Positions 6,620-37,281 of a DNA stretch of 64,000 nucleotides are shown here, piece after piece; the stretch's first letter is position 1; each line of letters starts with the position of its first letter. The notes beneath the pieces were generated by a model. It was given only the letters and a program-made list of their open reading frames with translations, was not told the DNA's origin and searched no databases. The DNA comes from an uncultured Actinomycetota bacterium (GTDB lineage: Bacteria; Actinomycetota; Acidimicrobiia; Acidimicrobiales; Bog-793). A program made the position numbers and the translations under genes. The stretch covers positions 201,511 to 265,510 of the forward strand of contig CAVWVO010000001.1 in the NCBI GenBank assembly GCA_963758515.1, in the 5' to 3' direction.

Positions 6620-7900
6620 GGCCGGACGGCGGCGGCTAGGAAAGCCTGCAGCTTGAGCTGTGTCTCGGCAAGCTCGCCGGCCGGATCGGAGTCGCTCACG
6701 ATGCCCACGCCGGCGAAGAGGCGGGCCGTGCGGCCGGCGACGAGTGCACAGCGGATGCCGAGGTACCACTCGCCGTCGCCGTCGCCCCTGATCCACCCGG
6801 CAGCGCCGCCGTAGCGGTCCCGGTCGAGCTCCTCCGCCTTCTCGAGGTAGTCGAGCGCCAGGTCGGCCGGTGTGCCCGCCACCGCCGGCGTCGGGTGAAC
6901 GAGCGCCAGCACGTCGAGGGCAGTGGGCAGCCTCCCGTCCGGCCCGGTGCTCAGGTTGCCGCCAATCCTCGTCCCGAGATGCGAGACGTTGCGGAGCTCG
7001 ACGATCTGAGGGGCTTCGGGCACCTCGAGGTCGTCGGTCGCGGGCAACAGGGCGGCGGAGATCGCCTCCACGACGGCTCGGTGCTCGGCCCGCTCCTTCG
7101 GGGAGCTGAGAAGAGCCGCCTCGGCCCGGCGGTCGGCGTCCGGGTCCCCGCTCCGCGAAGCCGTCCCGGCGAGTGGATGTGACTCGACGCGCCGTCCCGC
7201 CCTCCGGACGAGGAGCTCCGGGCTCGCGCCGAGAAACCCGCTCCAGGGCGAACGTCAGGCACGACGGGTGCAGAGACCGCAGCCTCTCCAACAGGTCTGC
7301 CTGGCGGAAGGGCCGGTTAGCCTCGACAACCACCTCGCGTGCCATCACCACCTTTTCGAGGCGGCCACTGCGCACCTCGCCGACAGCGTCGGCGACGCGG
7401 CGCAGGAAGTCGGCATGGGGTCGCGCCGAGCGCAGCATGAAGCCGTCCGGTGGAGGCTCTCGCCTTAGCGGCGGGGCGGCAAGAAGGTCGTCGAGGGGCC
7501 GGAGGCTTGCCGTCTCGCCCGTTACGACGGCAACGGGGGCGGAGCCGTCCCGCGACACCACCTGCACCGCAGGCACGACGAGGAGGGACGGGCCTCCCGG
7601 GAGGAACTTGAACGCCCCCATGGCACAGGGAAGCTCTGCGGGGGAGCGGCTGCTCCGGGAAGGACCTCCTTCTCGGGGCTCCCCCCGGTGGCGTATCTCG
7701 CCCAGCTCCCGGACCACCCCCTCGAGAGCTGCAGGATCTTGGAGCCCGTTCGGCAACTTGAGGAGGCGGGCCACTCCGAGACCGAGAATCGACAGGCCGT
7801 CCCGCTCGACCACCATCCCCTCCGAGAAGGCCCGTTGCCGCAGCCGGCTGAATTCGGCCTCTTCGAGCGTGCGGCAGGCGAAGCCGAGCTCGACCATCAA
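6616..7900 (-). CDS. menF: Isochorismate synthase (menaquinone pathway); one frame break near 7234-7239
   Basis: The N-part is the first ~220 aa of track ORF 5510..7900 (...RSLHPSCLTFALE). Hand translation one frame over continues FLGASPELLVRRAGRRVESHPLAGTASRSGDPDADRRAEAALLSSPKERAEHRAVVEAI, joining track ORF 6616..7071 (...YGGAAGWIRGDGDGEWYLGIRCA...AGVGIVSDSDP). ATGA overlap with the menG stop. Confidence 0.75.
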
Positions 7901-8697
7901 GGCTCCGCCGTCAGCGCGTCCGGCCGGACCGTCACCCGCGGCATGCCTGCCCGTGTGGCGGTGACGACCTGCGCCACGCCGCCCGTCATGAGGTCACGCC
8001 GCATGCCCGTGAAGCCGGCATCGCCGAGCATGGCGGCGAGCTGGGCATAGACGGGGAGATAGGAGACCGAACGGGGAAGATAGCGGTAGGCGGCGGGATC
8101 TGAGAAGAGACCGCCGATCCGGGGCACGACGTGGTTGAACCAGATCGAGTGGCCGGCCCGGATGAGCCTGTTGGGGGGCTCGGCCACCTCGAGCAGCGAT
8201 ATCCGACCACCCGGCCGCACGACTCGCGCAAGCTCCACTGTCACCGCCGGCAAATCAGAGAAGTTCCGCAGCGCAAAGCCGCTCACCACGCCGTCTACTG
8301 CCGAGTCGTGAAGCGGCAGCATCGCCGCGTCCGACTGGACGAGGGGCGCCACGCTCCGGTCGCCGGTCCTCAGCATGCCGATGGACAGGTCGATGCCGAC
8401 AGAGCGGTAGCCGCGGCGAACGAGAGTCCGGGCGAGATCCCCGGTCCCGCAGCCGACGTCGGCAACAAGGGCCCCCGGCCCGAGGGCGAGCAGCCGGATG
8501 GCCGTGCGCCGCCAGAGCGAGTCGAGGCCGAAGGTGATGAGCCCGTTTACGAAGTCGTAGCGCGGGGCGATCGAGTCGAACATCTCGCGCACGAACGTCC
8601 GCTTGTCGGTGCCGGTTGGCAGCGCCTGCTCAGCGTCCACCGATGCCACTTTAAAGGGTGGGGCGGCATGCACGGTAGGCTCCCGCCGCTCCGACAT
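7897..8697 (-). CDS. menG: Demethylmenaquinone methyltransferase (UbiE/MenG family)
   Basis: ...VREMFDSIAPRYDFVNGLITFGLDSLWRR...VADVGCGTGDL (SAM motif I)...ISLLEVAEP. The start is uncertain: ATG 8697 or in-frame GTGs at 8673, 8649 and 8640. Confidence 0.85.
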   Translation of the reverse strand: MSERREPTVHAAPPFKVASVDAEQALPTGTDKRTFVREMFDSIAPRYDFVNGLITFGLDSLWRRTAIRLLALGPGALVADVGCGTGDLARTLVRRGYRSVGIDLSIGMLRTGDRSVAPLVQSDAAMLPLHDSAVDGVVSGFALRNFSDLPAVTVELARVVRPGGRISLLEVAEPPNRLIRAGHSIWFNHVVPRIGGLFSDPAAYRYLPRSVSYLPVYAQLAAMLGDAGFTGMRRDLMTGGVAQVVTATRAGMPRVTVRPDALTAEP

Positions 8698-20926: not shown

Positions 20927-22094
20927 ATGATGAGGGAGCCGTCACGCCGCCGGGCGCTTCGGCGAGTACGGCGGCCGCTTCGTGCCCGAATCGCTCGTGC
21001 CGGCGTGCGAGGAGCTCGAAGCGGCCTTCCGGCAGGCCTGGGGCGACCCGGCCTTCCGCGGTGAGCTCGACCGGTTGCTCCGGGAGTACGGCGGCCGGCC
21101 GACTCCAGTGTGGCGCTGCCGCCGCCTGAGCGAGCACCTCAACCTGCGCGTGTTGCTGAAGCGGGAGGACCTCTGCCACACCGGCTCGCACAAGCTCAAC
21201 AACGTCATCGGCCAGGCCCTGCTCGCCAAGCAGATGGGCAAGACCCGGCTCATCGCCGAGACCGGGGCGGGCCAGCACGGTGTGGCGACGGCGACGGCGG
21301 CAGCTCTGTTCGGGATGTCGTGCCGGGTGTACATGGGCGCGATCGACGTCGCCCGCCAGGAGCTGAACGTCTTCAGGATGCGGCTTCTCGGCGCCGAGGT
21401 CATTCCGGTCGAGGCGGGCAGCCGGACGATGAAGGACGCGATAAACGAGGCGCTCCGCGACTGGGTGGCGAGCCTCGAGACGACGCACTACTGCCTCGGC
21501 TCGGTCGTCGGTCCGAACCCCTACCCCTTCATCGTGAGAGAGCTGCAACGGGTCGTGGGCGAGGAGGCCCGCGGGCAGTGCAGGGAGATGCTCCGCGCCG
21601 ACCCGGACGTCGTCGTCGCCTGCGTGGGCGGCGGCTCCAACGCGGCGGGAACCTTCGCCGGCTTCGTCGACTCGGGCGCCAGGCTCGTCGGGGTGGAGGC
21701 CGAGGGCGGGGCGGCGACGAAACGGGGCATCCCGGGCGTGGTGCATGGCATGCGGTCGATGTTCCTCCAGGACGAGGACGGTCAGATCCTCGAGGCGGAG
21801 TCGATCGCAGCCGGCCTCGACTACCCGGGGATCGGCCCCGAGCATGCCTTCCTCGGTGAGATAGGGCGTGCGGAGTACGTAGAGGCGGGTGATGAAGAGG
21901 TGTTGGAGGCGTTCCGACTGCTCAGCCAGCTGGAGGGGATCATCCCTGCCCTCGAGCCCTGCCACGCCCTCGCCTGGGTGATCCGCGAAGCGGGACGGTC
22001 GATCCCCGCCCGCTCGAGCGTGCTCGTCACGTTGTCGGGCCGTGGGGACAAGGATGTCGACCTCGTCATGAGACGCCTGCATGGCCTCCGTTGA
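20927..22094 (+). CDS. trpB: Tryptophan synthase beta chain; frame break near 20944-20952
   Basis: Track ORF 20982..22094 (...[13 protein letters not shown]-Lys...ETGAGQHG...GGGSNAAG...). The conserved [13 protein letters not shown] upstream has no in-frame start. ATG 20927 (MMREPS) sits one frame off, and removing one C joins them. Confidence 0.9.
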
Positions 22095-22945
22095 GGGCGG
22101 GCGGCCCGGAGCGGCCGCGGGGAGCCCTCCCGCTGGCGGCACGGCGAGGGCCGGGTCGGCGGCCGGGCGGGGATCACTCGAGGAACGGCTGCGCGGGCAG
22201 AGGTCAAAAGGGCGGAAGCTGCTCGTTCCCTACCTGACGGGCGGCCTCGGTCCGGATTGGGTGGCCTGCCTCGAAGCGGTGGCCGCCGCCGGCGCCGATG
22301 CGGTCGAAGTGGGTCTGCCGTTCAGTGACCCGATGATGGACGGCCCGGTGATCCAGCGGGCGTCGGTTCTCGCGCTCGAGGCGGGGGCGACGTCGCTCGG
22401 GATCATCTCTGCGGTCGGCACGGCTGACATCGGGATCCCCGTCGCCGTGATGAGCTACTACAACGTCGTGGCAAGGACGGGCCACCACCGGATGGCACGC
22501 CAGCTCGTCGAGGCCGGCATCGCCGGGACCATCGTGCCCGATCTGCCCGTCGACGAGCTCGACGGCTGGGGCGACGCCGCCCGTGAGGCGGGAGTGGAAA
22601 CGGTCCTGCTCGCCGCCCCGACGACGCTCGAGGCTCGTCTCAAGATGATCGGGGAGAAGACGAGGGGTTTCTTGTACGCCATCGGCCTGATGGGGGTGAC
22701 GGGGGAGCGGGACGAGCTCTCCGCCGAGCGCGGCGGAGACAGCTCGGCGTTGCAAGCAGGTGACCGACTGCCCCGTCCTCGTCGGGATCGGCATCACGAC
22801 CCCCGCCCAGGCCGTCGAGGTCGCAGCTGTCGCCGACGGCGTCGTGGTCGGTTCTGCTCTCGTCCGGCGGCTGCTCGAGGGCGGCGGCCCCGAGGACGTG
22901 GCGGAGCTCGTGGCTGAGTTCCGCGCCGCTCTCGACGTTGCATGA
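22081..22945 (+). CDS. trpA: Tryptophan synthase alpha chain; frame break near 22727-22733
   Basis: Track ORF 22081..22917 (...LVPYLTGG...[22 protein letters not shown]...YYN...[12 protein letters not shown]) continues in 22760..22945 (...[18 protein letters not shown]...[11 protein letters not shown]). Confidence 0.85.
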
Positions 22946-32131: not shown

Positions 32132-33290
32132 ATCTGAATTTTTGTTCTCCAAGCTACAAAGAGCCAACGGTGGATGCCTTGGCGCCTGAAGCCGAAGAAG
32201 GACGTGGATGGCTGCGATAAGCCACGGGGAGCTGCCTATCAAGCTTCGATCCGTGGATGTCCGAATGGGGAAACCCGGCACCTGTCATGAGGTGTCACTC
32301 CGGTCTGAATGAATAGGACCGGCAGAGGGAACCGGGGGAATTGAAACATCTCAGTACCCCGAGGAGAGGAAAGCAACAGCGACTCCCTGAGTAGCGGCGA
32401 GCGAAACGGGAAGAGCCTAAACCGATGCGGTGTCAAGCCTGGTGGCGTTGCCGGATCGGGGTCGTGGGACGTGGAAGAAGGGGCACCAGACCCTTCACGG
32501 AGTTACAAAGTTGCTGCTTAGTGGAAGTGCACTGGAAAGACGCGCCATAGCGGGTAAGAGCCCCGTACACGAAAAGCAAGCAGCCTCCGTCCACCAATCC
32601 CGAGTAGCGCCGGATCCGGGAAAGCCGGCGTGAATCTACGAGGACCACCTCGAAAGGCTAAGTACTCACAGGCGACCGATAGCGAACTAGTACCGTGAGG
32701 GAAAGGTGAAAAGCACCCCGGGAGGGGAGTGAAATAGTACCTGAAACCGTTGGCTTACAAACAGTCAGAGCGTCGTCATCTCCTAAGGGAGGTGGCCGTG
32801 ATGGCGTGCCTTTTGAAGAATGAGCCAGCGAGTTACCGTGTGTGGCGAGGTTAACCCGAATGGGGGAGCCGGAGCGAAAGCGAGTCTGAACAGGGCGTTC
32901 AGTCGCATGCGGTAGACCCGAAGCCGAGTGATCTAGCCATGGGCAGGCTGAAGCGGGGGTAAGACCCCGTGGAGGGCCGAACCCACTTTGGTTGAAAACA
33001 AAGGGGATGACCTGTGGTTAGGGGTGAAAGGCCAAACAAACTCGGTGATAGCTGGTTCTCCCCGAAATGCATTTAGGTGCAGCGTCAGACGTTCAGCATC
33101 GGAGGTAGAGCACTGAATGGGCTAGGGGGCCTACAAGCTTACTGACCCCAATCAAACTCCGAATGCCGATGCTCCAGAGTCTGGCAGTGAGACCACGGGG
33201 GATGAGCTTCGTTGGTCGAAAGGGAAACAGCCCAGACCGCCAGCTAAGGCCCCAAATTCTAGGCTAAGTGGGAAACGATGTGGGAACGCA

Positions 33291-33360
<70 letters not shown>

Positions 33361-34225
33361 GTCCCGCGCGGACAATGTAACGGGGCTCAAGCCTAGAGCC
33401 GAAGCTGCGGGCTCCTGCCTAGAGCAGGAGCGGTAGGGGAGCGTCGATCTTGCTGAGAAGCGGCGGTGGGAACCGTCGTGGAGCGTGATCGAGTGAGAAT
33501 GCTGGCATGAGTAGCGAGAGAGGAGTGAGAAACTCCTCCGCCGTAAGCCCAAGGGTTCCTGGGGAAGGCTAATCCACCCAGGGTCAGTCGGGAGCTAAGG
33601 CGAGGCCGAGAGGCGTAGTCGATGCACAACTGGTTGATATTCCAGTACCACCGTGTCCGCGCCCATTCCAATCCGGGGGAACTACGGGGCTGGTCTTCGG
33701 ACCGATCTGTTGGAACCCGAGGCGGACAGCAAAGGGGGGACGCAGGAGGATAAGTGAACCCAGGCGCTGGTTGTCCTGGGGGAAGCGTGTAGGGGGAGTC
33801 CTAGGCAAATCCGGGGCTCACATACCCTGAGACGTGATCCCGAGCCATTCCAGGCGAAGTCACTGAGTCCATGCTGCCAAGAAAAGCCCCTAGCGAGTTG
33901 GCACGGTGCCCGTACCCCAAACCGACACAGGTGGGCGGGTAGAGCATACCAAGGCGATCGGGAGAACTGTGGTTAAGGAACTCGGCAAAATTCCTCCGTA
34001 ACTTCGGGAGAAGGAGGACCTCGATAGGGTGACGGACTTCGCGTCCCGAGCTCGAGGAGGTCGCAGAGAATTGGGGGAAGCGACTGTTTACTAAAAACAC
34101 AGCAGCGTGCGAAGTCGTAAGACGATGTATACGCTGTGACGCCTGCCCGGTGCCGGAAGGTTACGGGGAGGGGTTAGTCCTTCGGGACGAAGCTCTGAAC
34201 CTAAGCCCCGGTAAACGGCGGCCGT

Positions 34226-34977
34226 AAAGACAAGTTGCGGCTCCGGTTGGGTAACCGACCGGATCAAACCCTGCTATTTGCTGGAAACCCCGTGTATCCG
34301 GCGGTACTCGTCCATGGTGGCGCTCTCGAGCGCTGTCACATCCTCTTCGTAGGGTGAGAGCCATGGGCAGTGACAATCCGTCCGGTGCGGACAATCAGCA
34401 GGAAAGGCCCAGTTCCTCAGACTGGTTGGATCGTGTCCCGTATGACCTGGGCAACTGGGTCGCGGGCTTCGTCGACGGAGAGGGGAGCTTCAACGTCCCC
34501 GTCCGTCGAGAGCGTGATCGCGGCTTGCCATGGCGAGTCTCGTTGTCGTTCAATGTCTCGCAGATCGGTCCGGAACTCCCTGAGCTCCTGAGGTCGGTCT
34601 TCGGGGTGGGAACGGTTCGAGGTCGTGGGGACGGCGTCTTCTACTTTGAAGTCACTCGTCCCGGGGCGCTCGCAGAGCGGGTCTTCCCGTTCTTTGAGCG
34701 CTTCCCACTGCGCAGTCCGAAGCGGACAGATCTTGCGATCTTCCGCAGATCACTGAGCTCATCCAGTCAGGCCGGCACCGTACGCCGGCGGGCATCGGAG
34801 AGATCCTCATCCTGAGGTCTCCGATGAACCGAGGCGGAAAGCGCCGGTACGACGAGCGCTACATCCTCGCCGTACTTGAGAGTTGGGAATCCTCAGAGGC
34901 CATACGCAGGGCTCCGTCTTTGAAGCAAGACGGATGAAGATATGGTCCACGCCCTATGGCGACATAGGGGTAACGGG
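34226..34977 (+). mobile_element. Group I intron after U1911 (E. coli numbering) of 23S rRNA, ORF-containing, 752 nt
   Basis: Exon ...ggcggccgT | intron ...taacggG | aactataacggt. Guide gcggct (34237-34242) pairs with exon GGCCGU including the U.G wobble. Q-like aatcagcagg, R-like tcagaggcc, S-like aagatatggtcc. The junction could formally slide by 1-2 nt (AA is ambiguous), but only this placement gives U(-1)/G(omega). Confidence 0.8.
34354..34937 (+). CDS. LAGLIDADG homing endonuclease (single-motif, I-CeuI-like), frame break near 34746-34749
   Basis: Track ORF 34354..34815: ...LGNWVAGFVDGEGSFNVPV...SLSFNVSQ...GVGTVRGRGDG...RVFPFFERFPLRSPKRTDLAIF. The -1 frame then continues ITELIQSGRHRTPAGIGEILILRSPMNRGGKRRYDERYILAVLESWESSEAIRRAPSLKQDG, with its stop at 34935-34937. 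The likely start is ATG 34363. Confidence 0.75.
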
Positions 34978-34989
34978 AACTATAACGGT

Positions 34990-35295
34990 CAACCCAGGCC
35001 GTGGGTAAACCTGGCTATATGCTGGAATCCCCGTGTATCCGGCGGTACTCGTTATCCATCCATGGCCTCTGGCCATAGATTGATGGCAGTGACAATCCGT
35101 CCGGTGCGGACAATCAGCAGGAAACCGCGTTGTACAGCGGGATCCTCAGAGACTGCACGCCAGGCCTGTCAGCCTTCGCTGGCGGTGAAGGTACAGTCCG
35201 ACCCTCGTGGCGACACGAGGAATCAGGCAGAAATGGCCTGATCACTCTTCGAAAAGGCTCGGGTAACTGAGCTCCAGAAGAGGAGTAACAACGTG
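34990..35295 (+). mobile_element. Group I intron after U1923 of 23S rRNA, ORF-less, 306 nt, paralogous to the 34226 intron
   Basis: Exon ...tataacggT | caaccc...aacgtG | cctaaggtagcgaaa. Guide gccgtg (34998-35003) pairs with exon ACGGU. It shares gctggaaNccccgtgtatccggcggtactcgt and ggcagtgacaatccgtccggtgcggacaatcagcaggaaa with the upstream intron. R-like tcagagactgca. Confidence 0.75.
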
Positions 35296-35350
<55 letters not shown>

Positions 35351-35603
35351 CGACTTCCCCACTGTCTCAACCACAGACCCGGCGAAATTGAACTACGAGT
35401 AAAGATGCTCGTTAGCTGCACCAGGACGGAAAGACCCCGTGGACCTTTACTGCAGCTTGATGTTGAGTTTTGGTACTGATTGTGTAGGATAGGTGGGAGC
35501 CTAGGAAGCTTCGGCGTTAGCCGGGGTGGAGGCAACCTTGAAATACCACCCTGTTAGTGCTGGGGCTCTAACCTCGACCCGTAAGCCGGGTCAGGGACAG
35601 CGT

Positions 35604-35675
<72 letters not shown>

Positions 35676-35859
35676 GTTGGCAATCAGCCGTCGAGTGCAA
35701 TGGCAAAAGGGAGCTTGACTGCGAGACCTACAAGTCGAGCAGGTGCGAAAGCAGGCCATAGTGATCCAGCGATTGCGTGTGGAAGCGTCGTTGCTCAACG
35801 GATAAAAGGTACCCCGGGGATAACAGGCTCATCTTCCCCAAGAGTCCATATCGACGGGA

Positions 35860-35905
<46 letters not shown>

Positions 35906-35906
35906 C

Positions 35907-35942
<36 letters not shown>

Positions 35943-35965
35943 TACGCGAGCTGGGTTTAGAACGT

Positions 35966-36684
35966 AGATCACTGCGTCCCCAGGGAGTAATCCCTGGGTG
36001 CTCACCGGCTCATATCGGTGGAACCCCGACTGATACACCCGAACTGTACGGTCAGGGCAATACCGAGGGAAGGCCAACACCGGTGAAAGTGTTGCAAGCG
36101 TCCTATGTTGCAGGATTTCTCGATGGCGATGGAAGTATCCACTTCCAGCTCGTCAAGCAGAAGGAGTATCGATTCGGGTACTACATCCGGTCGAGCGTCT
36201 CCTTCTCGCAGAGCACCTCCGCCAGAGGAGGCCTGGAGATCCTCCAGAGCCTCGTTGGCGGTGGCTACCTGCGGGATCGTGGTACCGGAATGAGTGACCT
36301 CGTTGTCACCAGCCGGCCGCTTCTGCTCGACTTGTTGCGCTCTCTCGAGCCGTTCGTGATCTTCAAAAGGGAGCACGTGCGGCGAGCTCTCGATCTGCTT
36401 CCCCGCCTTGGCGGGGTGCGTGATCCGGAGCGGTACCTGCAACTGGCACGTGAAGTCGACGCCTTTGCCACCCTAAACTATTCGAAGACGAAGCGGATAA
36501 CCGCCGTAGATGTTGAGCGACATCTACGTAGCATGGGAGTGTTGTGCCCCTGTAACGACTTCCTCGCTTGCCACAGCGGGGGGATGGCGTCAGAAGTAAT
36601 CATCTCACGGACGCCATGACACGCCGGCCCCTCGAAAGAGGGTGAAGGTATAGTCTATGCCCGTAGTAATACGGGAGTTTCATG
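35966..36684 (+). mobile_element. Group I intron at L2593 of 23S rRNA, ORF-containing, 719 nt
   Basis: Exon gggtttagaacgT | agatcactgcgtcc...gagtttcatG | cgtgagacagttcgg. Guide gcgtcc (35974-35979) pairs with exon AACGU/GAACGU. S-like aaggtatagtct near the 3' end. Same site as the Chlamydomonas chloroplast Cr.LSU intron. Confidence 0.85.
36083..36619 (+). CDS. LAGLIDADG homing endonuclease (single-motif, I-CreI-like)
   Basis: Track ORF 35918..36619 starts in the exon. GTG 36083 is 9 nt after gagggaagg. VLQASYVAGFLDGDGSIHFQL...GGGYLRDRGTGMSDLVV...LEPFVIFKREHV...ATLNYSKTKRITA parallels I-CreI YLAGFVDGDGSI...GVGYVRDRGSVSDYILS...LQPFLKLKQKQA...AALNDSKTRKTTS (from memory). Confidence 0.85.
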   Translation: MKVLQASYVAGFLDGDGSIHFQLVKQKEYRFGYYIRSSVSFSQSTSARGGLEILQSLVGGGYLRDRGTGMSDLVVTSRPLLLDLLRSLEPFVIFKREHVRRALDLLPRLGGVRDPERYLQLAREVDAFATLNYSKTKRITAVDVERHLRSMGVLCPCNDFLACHSGGMASEVIISRTP

Positions 36685-36826
36685 CGTGAGACAGTTCGGT
36701 CCCTATCCGGTGCAGCCGTAGGAGATCTGAGGAAGGCTGTCCCTAGTACGAGAGGACCGGGACGGACGCAGCTCTTGTGTGCCAGTTGTCTTGCCAAAGG
36801 CACGGCTGGTTTGCGACCTGCGGAAG

Positions 36827-36858
<32 letters not shown>

Positions 36859-37104
36859 TCGTTCCAAGATGAGATCTCCCACAGGGTTAACCTGGTAAGG
36901 CCCGTGGTCAGAACACCACGTTGATAGGCCGGAGGTGTAAGCACGGCAACGTGTTCAGCCGACCGGTACTAATCGGCCGAGGGCTTGGGGCTCGTGCTCG
37001 CTATGGAAGGCTCACAGGGGCGACGGTTCGTCGTCGTCCTGACGGCTGCTGATATGTCGGCTCCAGAACTGGAGGCTGCCCCTCAGCGGCCGGAAGAGCG
37101 AAAG

Positions 37105-37224
<120 letters not shown>

Positions 37225-37237
37225 TTGATCTGAGGAA

Positions 37238-37268
37238 GAGCCCCGTGCCGCTTGGCGCGGGGCTCTTT
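37238..37268 (+). terminator. Intrinsic terminator of the rRNA operon
   Basis: gagccccgtgcc gctt ggcgcggggctc (12-bp stem with one G.U) followed by ttt. Confidence 0.6.
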
Positions 37269-37281
37269 CGCCGTCCGGGCT

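Follow-up and report, generated by a model that had tools for sequence, protein, structure and literature searches.

To our knowledge, the group I introns described in bacterial rRNA genes are few, and come from Coxiella, Simkania, Thermotoga, some cyanobacteria, giant sulfur bacteria and lineages of the candidate phyla radiation (CPR). The insertion sites in Coxiella burnetii are Cbu.L1917 and Cbu.L1951. Position 1923 is occupied in organelles, by the Ce.LSU.5 intron (I-CeuI) of the Chlamydomonas chloroplast and by the rnl-1923 group IB introns of fungal mitochondria. The subject of this study is the 23S rRNA gene in a stretch of 64,000 nt ("the window", positions 201,511 to 265,510 of contig CAVWVO010000001.1, assembly GCA_963758515.1) from an uncultured bacterium of the Acidimicrobiales (Acidimicrobiia, Actinomycetota). 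Within helix 69 (H69) this gene contains two inserts which we read, with a probability of about 0.9, as group I introns belonging to separate site-specific lineages, L1911 and L1923.

The title of Raghavan et al. (2007), as cited in PMC11270868, refers to two introns around a 34-bp exon in the 23S rRNA gene of C. burnetii. For bacteria, Haugen et al. (2007) give the 23S sites L1917, L1931, L1951 and L2593, and the introns of Synechococcus sp. C9/S. lividus and Thermotoga are at L1917, L1931 and L2593 (PMC1995217). The sites in a survey of the CPR are 1917, 1931, 1952, 2593, 2604 and 2657, the positions being approximate (Tsurumaki et al. 2024, PMC11270868). Archaeal introns of class IB4 have been placed at LSU/1923 and LSU/1931 of the large subunit (LSU) rRNA (Nawrocki et al. 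2018, PMC6125680, Table 1). In the archaeal contig KP308720.1 an L1923 intron (21440-21763) and an L1931 intron (21772-22514) are separated by a micro-exon of 8 nt (PMC6125680), so very close tandem introns in this region have a precedent. The site rnl-1923 is also mentioned in PMC13190283. At site 1911, the literature searched contains solely a group II intron, with a LAGLIDADG open reading frame (ORF), in the mitochondrial rnl of Gloeotilopsis planctonica (Turmel et al. 2016, PMC5630911; PMC13190283). No description of an L1911 group I intron, and none of group I introns in Acidimicrobiia or Actinomycetota, was found in that literature, whose coverage was incomplete and which gives absence of evidence only. 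A first reading of the window, made without database searches (the original prediction), had supposed that U1911 was uncatalogued and that such actinobacteria offered no case, and within this literature it was right.

Position and boundaries of the inserts

The rRNA genes of the window are ordered 16S, 23S and 5S, and by Rfam the 16S, the 5S and the remaining 23S are all full-length. The two-intron interval of 1070 nt lies within the full-length match to bacterial LSU rRNA. At the RNA level the layout is GGCGGCCGU / 752 nt / AACUAUAACGGU / 306 nt / CCUAAGG. In the DNA, ggcggccgt runs up to 34225 and is followed by the first insert (34226-34977), by aactataacggt (34978-34989), by the second insert (34990-35295), and by cctaaggtagcgaaattcc from 35296. 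The exon register is continuous across both inserts, and the universal H69 sequence is regained once both are cut out in silico. The E. coli numbering was anchored on known H69 residues (pseudouridines 1911/1915/1917, A1913, A1919), which places insert 1 after U1911 and insert 2 after U1923. A U precedes each insert and a G closes each (G34977, G35295). The original prediction had proposed two group I introns at these residues, 12 nt apart, with these edges, lengths, preceding U and final G, and the boundaries and the fold described below agree with it. The micro-exon of 12 nt is unusually short; intron 1 uses its first 3-4 nt for P10, and intron 2 its last 5 nt for P1 (P, paired region; J, joining region). 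The coordinates of all features are collected in Table 1.

Table 1. Features of the 23S rRNA gene and its inserts, in window coordinates
Feature	Position	Strand	Basis
23S rRNA host gene with three inserts	32147..36993	+	Rfam RF02541, 2348 bits, model 1-2925
5' exon strand of intron-1 P1, GGCCGU (E. coli 1906-1911, 5' strand of H69 stem)	34220..34225	+	splice site after U1911; pairing invariant in 19/19 L1911 introns
Intron 1, group I, L1911, 752 nt, omega-G 34977	34226..34977	+	same-site orthologs in ~57 genomes; L035 ortholog RF00028 62.6 bits; covariation
Intron-1 internal guide: AGUU 34233-34236 (P10 with 3' exon AACU) and GCGGCU 34237-34242 (P1)	34233..34242	+	read from sequence
Intron-1 P2 hairpin, GUAA tetraloop, missing in intron 2	34242..34263	+	compensatory changes at 9/9 pairs
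Intron-1 P3 5' strand, P4, P5, P5a/b extension, P4 3' strand (Q block), P6 5' strand	34269..34403	+	covariation
Single-motif LAGLIDADG homing endonuclease gene in P6 loop	34363..34937	+	Pfam PF00961 E 1.5e-13; frame broken
Intron-1 3' core: P6a/P6 3' strands, P7, P3 3' strand, P8, P9.0, P9	34880..34976	+	covariation
12-nt micro-exon AACUAUAACGGU (E. coli 1912-1923: H69 loop and most of 3' strand)	34978..34989	+	sequence reading
Intron 2, ORF-less group I, L1923, 306 nt, omega-G 35295	34990..35295	+	RF00028 52-53 bits; L1923 covariation
Intron-2 internal guide GGCCGU, same as H69 5' strand (1906-1911)	34997..35002	+	sequence and L1923 alignment
Intron-2 core and periphery P3-P9.2, no P2	35010..35282	+	covariation
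Third insert, presumed group I intron with LAGLIDADG ORF, after U2593 (I-CreI site)	35966..36687	+	725-nt insertion in LSU model

Fold of the two introns

The group I covariance model of Rfam (RF00028; gathering threshold 50 bits) matches intron 2 with 52-53 bits and places P3-P8 correctly. An ORF-less ortholog of intron 1, from the closest 16S relative found (L035; 16S 96.8% identical; such three-digit handles denote loci and assemblies of our scans), reaches 62.6 bits along the entire model, its P1 being the pairing of exon GGCCGU with GCGGCU. Covariation was assessed in two alignments, A3, in which the window intron, its ORF removed, is aligned to 18 ORF-less L1911 introns of other genomes (n=19), and A4, which contains 20 ORF-less L1923 introns. 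On A3, RNAalifold recovered P1, P2, P3, P4, P5, P5a, P6, P8 and P9, and P7 was added as a pseudoknot. Standard pairs fill 95.9% of the cells of A3, and 45 of the 74 pairs show compensatory change (slid controls 37-43%); the corresponding values for A4 are 95.7% and 41 of 70 pairs (slid controls 31-44%). For each alignment, 0 of 500 shuffles reached the observed values. The P3/P7 pseudoknot lies within the covariation-supported pairs in both families; in P7 the outer G-C pairs are invariant and the inner pairs covary.

In intron 1, P1 pairs GGCCGU (34220-34225) with GCGGCU (34237-34242), including the U.G wobble, and the guide region GUUGCGGC is kept in nearly all L1911 introns. The core includes P3 (34269-34274/34906-34911), P7 (34896-34903/34942-34948), P8 (34913-34934) and P9 (34952-34969). 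P7 is G[A]GGCCAU/AUGGUCC with a bulged nucleotide, and J8/7 reads GAAGAUAU. At 34313-34333 the P5 extension of the window copy holds about 17-19 extra nt (ggtggcgctctcgagcgct, a small palindromic hairpin) which are not in the orthologs.

In intron 2, P1 pairs ACGGU (34985-34989) with GCCGU (34998-35002). Its U.G wobble, here G34998.U1923, is present in 20 of 20 L1923 introns, and G34997 can pair with C1924. The helices P3 (35010-35015/35159-35164), P6 (hairpin 35125-35140), P7 (35149-35155/35194-35199) and P8 (35166-35185) are followed by P9 (35203-35220), P9.1 (35222-35242) and P9.2 (35245-35282); P4, P5 and P5a/b are also present. P7 is G[A]GACUG/CAGUCC, again with a bulged nucleotide, and J8/7 is GAAGGUA. 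The S element, which comprises J8/7 and the 3' strand of P7, is gaaggtacagtcc at 35188-35200. Both guides lie where the original prediction had put them, i.e., gcggct pairing with GGCCGU, and a guide near 34998 pairing with ACGGU, each with its wobble. Its choice of agaaatggcc as the S-like element of intron 2 was wrong, this being the loop of P9.1.

The endonuclease gene of intron 1

The ORF of intron 1 matches LAGLIDADG_1 with 51.9 bits (cutoff 23.1), and its motif, LGNWVAGFVDGEGSF, has the acidic residue. Half-domains of I-OnuI/I-SmaMI-type enzymes in the PDB align over the frameshift (best E value 3e-32). Because it has a single motif, the enzyme is presumably homodimeric. Frame A extends from the ATG at 34363 to about 34746 and frame B from 34749 to 34937, including the TGA stop at 34935-34937; the C-terminal third (...QITELIQSGRHRTPAGIGEILILRSPMNRGG...) is read in a different frame from the N-terminal part. 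The break corresponds to a 1-nt deletion between 34746 and 34747, where the window has TTCCGCAGATC and the orthologs have TTCCGCGAGATC, and it may reflect either a real pseudogene or a read error. Most of the L1911 orthologs of about 735 nt have one frame of about 190-200 codons open to the stop; the ORFs of L077 and L068 are examples of intact orthologs.

The gene overlaps the ribozyme core, its start being in P5 and its end in J8/7. In those L1923 relatives which have an endonuclease gene, the ORF lies between the Q and R elements, i.e., in P6, and the equivalence of ORF and hairpin in the two window introns is therefore right. The claim that the ORF of intron 1 takes the place of the small hairpin of intron 2, both being in P6, was thus sound. 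The L1911 endonucleases (31 orthologous ORFs) are 49-99% identical among themselves and have just 25-47% identity with the L1923 and L1931 enzymes; by this comparison the endonucleases group by insertion site. By these matches the product of intron 1 is a homolog of the LAGLIDADG homing endonucleases, with a predicted activity on a predicted H69 target around 1911.

Assessment of the group I assignment

Several points weigh against this assignment. The score of intron 2 is merely 2-3 bits over the RF00028 threshold, and the model puts P1/P2 of intron 2 wrongly on the 3' end of intron 1, while intron 1 itself receives no RF00028 score. The P10 of intron 2 is one base pair only, and the window copy of intron 1 has mismatches at the start of P5 (C.A) and in P9.0 (A.G). 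The endonuclease frame of intron 1 is broken, so the gene is not an uninterrupted single-domain reading frame. The omega-G of the relatives is partly forced, because the search patterns demanded a G, and was independently observed in the window alone. Splicing and exon ligation are themselves predictions from the fold. The missing score of intron 1 is attributed to its ORF of about 480 nt, which interrupts P6; moreover, at the gathering threshold RF00028 scored 0 of the 5 inserts in the 23S gene of L054, and a missing hit is therefore uninformative. The RF00028 search put forward with the original prediction as its check was accordingly positive for intron 2, above threshold, and negative for intron 1, for which the 62.6 bits of the ORF-less L035 ortholog stand.

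The rival explanation that survives best, which we still consider quite unlikely, is that the inserts are decayed non-splicing remnants or intervening sequences (IVS) of the fragmentation type, in an rRNA pseudogene or an rRNA in pieces. It would accommodate the frameshift of the endonuclease gene, the loss of the ORF from intron 2 and the few mismatches in P5 and P9.0, and there is a parallel in the L1931 intron of Simkania, reported as unspliced according to a title cited in PMC11270868. However, all core helices, including P1, P3, P7 and P9, are intact in both window introns, and compensatory changes between species have preserved them, a sign that the RNA fold is under selection. In addition, the three rRNAs of the operon are otherwise full-length, and H69 is essential, so that an unspliced insert would not be tolerable there. 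The known IVS processed by RNase III are simple extended stem-loops in helices 25 and 45, which take the place of a helix tip and are cut out with no joining of the ends. An RNase III-processed IVS was rejected as a candidate, given that the present inserts are in H69, have a group I core with a pseudoknot and code for a homing endonuclease.

Relationship of the two introns

Group I introns of the L1911, L1923 and L1931 sites were compared in an alignment of 192 introns trimmed to the core (247 columns) by bootstrapped nearest-neighbour tests and unweighted pair group clustering (UPGMA), and block sharing was followed by Hamming scans. Intron 1 has L1911 introns alone as its 15 nearest relatives (p-distance 0.13-0.15). 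Among the matches listed, the 15 introns closest to intron 2 are without exception L1923 introns of other assemblies (p-distance 0.17-0.25), those in L176, L080, L162 and L128 being the nearest. The cores of intron 1 and intron 2 have a p-distance of 0.376, and among the 191 neighbours of intron 2, intron 1 comes at rank 136. In 500 of 500 bootstraps the nearest neighbour was a same-site intron. The main UPGMA clusters (k=6) were L1911 with 57 (+1) members, L1923 with 77 (+4) and L1931 with 47, in addition to three small outlier groups. The introns thus cluster by site and not by genome, and the window pair is not a local duplication. In terms of these sequence distances, the two window introns are members of one broad family and of distinct site-specific lineages within it.

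An alternative, proposed in the original prediction as ectopic spread to a neighbouring look-alike site, is that intron 1 recently gave rise to intron 2, as a paralog, within this genome by reverse splicing or illegitimate homing, and that intron 2 later lost its ORF. Near-identical blocks (40/40 nt and about 44/47 nt) are indeed common to both, the P3-P9 architecture is alike overall, and ORF and hairpin are at one P6 position. The 40-nt block, GGCAGTGACAATCCGTCCGGTGCGGACAATCAGCAGGAAA, is identical in both window introns. However, in other species it recurs, with 0-3 mismatches, in the introns at L1911 and L1923 and in many of those at L1931; the shared blocks are equally conserved in all three groups, and on this sequence evidence the 40-nt block is a case of family-level conservation. 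The window introns are also much farther from each other than from same-site introns elsewhere, they differ in P7, P2 and P9.1/P9.2, and, among the matches listed, L1923 introns are abundant in contigs without an L1911 intron. Reading the sequences, the guide GCGGCU is unable to pair with AACGGU at the L1923 site. Since the site clustering refutes a recent paralogy event, we regard this alternative as even less probable than decay. What stands of the original claim is the presence of the two shared blocks in each insert and a kinship at the level of the broad intron family; the spread itself is not supported, given the site clustering, the core distance and the guide mismatch. An ancient switch of site between lineages would be a separate explanation, and would not be a feature of this genome.

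Distribution of the L1911 and L1923 lineages

Our reading of the inserts as members of separate L1911 and L1923 lineages was followed into other genomes by two scans. For L1911, species-representative genomes were searched with a pattern made of omega-G, exon 1912-1923 and either continuation. This gave 89 loci, of which about 72 are true 23S genes, and 57 fully bounded L1911 introns of 217-923 nt. The hosts are mainly Acidimicrobiia or other Actinomycetota, represented by metagenome-assembled genomes (MAGs), many of them long-read assemblies. Other hosts, by title, are Gaiellales, Omnitrophota, Planctomycetia, Anaerolineae, Acidobacteria, Caldisericales, Eubacteriales, Fraserbacteria and three CPR genomes. 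Rarity, as asserted in the original prediction, therefore holds in the literature and not in public sequence, where about 57 species-representative genomes have full L1911 introns.

About 17 of the 89 loci are outside 23S genes (four in Paenibacillus, others in Prevotella, Odoribacter, Chitinophagales, Saccharofermentanales and elsewhere) and were rejected as chance matches, of which about 35 are expected for a degenerate pattern of 21 nt by hand estimate. The Paenibacillus loci (L029, L037, L053 and L078) share G-AACTATAACGGT-CAAACCGG and were taken as one inherited chance match. In Afifella (L007) the match is inside the 23S gene and no insert was seen. Minimal L1911 introns of about 200-255 nt, with no P5 extension, were observed in the CPR (Patescibacteria; L001, L065, L073) and in Fraserbacteria (L021); their upstream exon is slightly different, being GTCGGCCGT or GCCGGCCGT. 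The "1917" class of the CPR survey may include some such L1911 introns.

Compared with the spliced 23S of the window, the 23S genes of the scan carry up to five inserts (five in L054; also L002, L016 and L027), with recurrent sites at L1911, L1931, about L1951, close to position 2430 of that spliced 23S, L2593 and about L2601. L035, the closest relative by 16S, has L1911 and L1931 introns, whereas the window has L1911 and L1923, which indicates that intron content turns over between close relatives. An additional match was noted in L054, another Acidimicrobiales MAG, where RF00028 scores 81 bits at 7489-7822 on the minus strand. This stretch overlaps with the 3' end of the match to 16S rRNA (model 1305-1533 at 7762-8000) and probably represents a group I intron close to the 3' end of that gene.

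For L1923, metagenome contigs were searched with omega-G and the exon from 1924 onward, which gave at least 120 loci and bounded inserts of 254-803 nt in at least 86 contigs. Among the matches listed, nearly all have the guide GGCCGU and the 3' terminal GUAACAA..UG, like intron 2, and most of the contigs are without an L1911 intron. Judged by the identity of the downstream exon, which is too noisy for finer assignment, the hosts are diverse. The L1911+L1923 tandem is present in the independent assembly L080, whose 23S exons are 97.6% identical to those of the window, and in at least five metagenome contigs (L107, L149, L155, L162 and L186). An assembly artefact, i.e., a chimera of rRNA operons or of reads from different organisms, would draw on the difficulty of assembling rRNA operons from metagenomes and on the 1-nt ORF deletion, which could be a read error, but it is scarcely credible and is excluded by the same L1911 / 12-nt exon / L1923 order in these independent assemblies from other samples, with the exon sequence unbroken and in register.

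Paired introns and proposed mechanism

Among L1911+L1931 pairs with a clear size class, 32 of 38 have one member of homing-endonuclease-gene (HEG) size and one short member. The combinations are 20 long+short, 12 short+long, 5 long+long and 1 short+short (Fisher p = 2.4e-5, uncorrected for phylogeny). All 5 distinct resolved L1911+L1923 pairs (the window, L107, L149/L155, L186 and L162) have exactly one HEG-size member. This pattern suggests that the ORF-less introns hitch-hike by co-conversion on the enzyme of the neighbour. We speculate, tentatively and with less than even confidence, that H69 and its 3' flank form a stacking hotspot in Acidimicrobiia and several other phyla, where three related site-specific lineages (L1911, L1923 and L1931) are paired across micro-exons of 12 or 20 nt with one HEG per pair. 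If this is true, ORF-less introns persist through co-conversion with the endonuclease of the neighbour, and the pair acts as a single mobile unit. The introns may also help each other to fold, as each P1 captures one strand of the H69 stem and could hold H69 apart until splicing.

In the proposed mechanism, each intron would leave the pre-rRNA by two guanosine-initiated transesterifications, and exon ligation would give back the canonical H69. The P10 of intron 1 and the P1 of intron 2 use non-overlapping bases of the micro-exon, so splicing would be possible in either order. Tandem group I introns can also give exon-skipped products (PMC10136302), which here would join 1911 to 1924. GCGGCU, the guide of the L1911 introns, is a variant form of the H69 3' strand and pairs with the 5' strand (1906-1911). 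The L1923 guide is identical to that 5' strand, so P1 and the 1-bp P10 of intron 2 mimic the H69 stem; the splice site sits at the natural G1907.U1923 wobble of H69. In DNA, the lineages would spread through endonuclease-driven homing into the conserved H69 target. Neither window intron could mobilise itself now, unless the frameshift is a sequencing error.

Other features of the operon

The third insert, at L2593, has 722 nt, is preceded by a U and ends with a G (edges gaacgt/agatc...ttcatg/cgtgag). It contains an S-like gaaggtatagtc and an ORF without internal stop (Pfam PF00961, E value 3e-6), and is 77-82% identical to the same-site inserts of L054, L049, L079 and L014. The closest relative over the 3' region of the 23S, L080, is without it. 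RF00028 gives no score for this insert, as for intron 1, the ORF breaking the model, and we presume that it is a group I intron. Just 3' of the 5S gene, at 37234-37269, a GC-rich hairpin is followed by a T run. It has weak matches to the Rfam F6 sRNA on both strands (27 and 22 bits; threshold 46) and is most simply the terminator of the rrn operon.

Implications

By their fold the window introns are standard group I introns, of a kind common in public MAGs; what is new, in the literature searched, is the L1911 site and the host phylum. In the Acidimicrobiia (Actinomycetota), a mainstream lineage of soils, a single 23S gene can contain as many as five inserts, and U1911 of H69 is a regular site of group I insertion and presumed homing, to which a separate lineage of ribozyme and endonuclease belongs. 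Assembly of a functional rRNA across a micro-exon of 12 nt is apparently possible. Such 23S genes will be overlooked or given a wrong size by rRNA-based annotation, by primers and by amplicon methods with long reads. The L1911 enzymes would provide a new source of rDNA-specific meganucleases, and the presence of one endonuclease per pair offers a testable case of cooperation or hitch-hiking among selfish elements.

Comparison with described systems

As in the window, one of the two introns of C. burnetii has a LAGLIDADG gene. The sites there, 1917 and 1951, differ from the 1911 and 1923 of the window, whose exon of 12 nt lies entirely in H69 and whose host is actinobacterial. Ce.LSU.5 and the rnl-1923 introns are likewise group I introns after 1923, and the target of their LAGLIDADG enzyme spans the H69 region; their hosts are organelles, in contrast to the ORF-less bacterial intron 2, and the likeness is one of site. 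The archaeal IB4 introns share the L1923 site and occur with and without LAGLIDADG genes. Their hosts, however, are archaea, no L1911 intron is listed among them, and IB4 is the class of the archaeal introns themselves. At site 1911, G. planctonica has an insertion after the same residue and an endonuclease of the same superfamily, which is the level at which the two enzymes are likened, but the ribozyme is group II and is located in a eukaryotic organelle.

The CPR resemble the window in having many group I introns in conserved 23S sites, with or without LAGLIDADG genes and with both forms at the same site; the survey covered no Actinomycetota (PMC11270868). The sites L1911 and L1923 are missing from the bacterial sites of Haugen et al. 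(PMC1995217). Synechococcus and Thermotoga nevertheless offer close parallels, as several group I introns are found per bacterial 23S gene and L2593 is shared with the window. Moreover, the single-motif LAGLIDADG ORFs of cyanobacterial rDNA introns extend from a peripheral loop into the ribozyme core, as in intron 1, and the introns and endonucleases of Synechococcus and Thermotoga cluster by insertion site, as they do here (PMC1995217).

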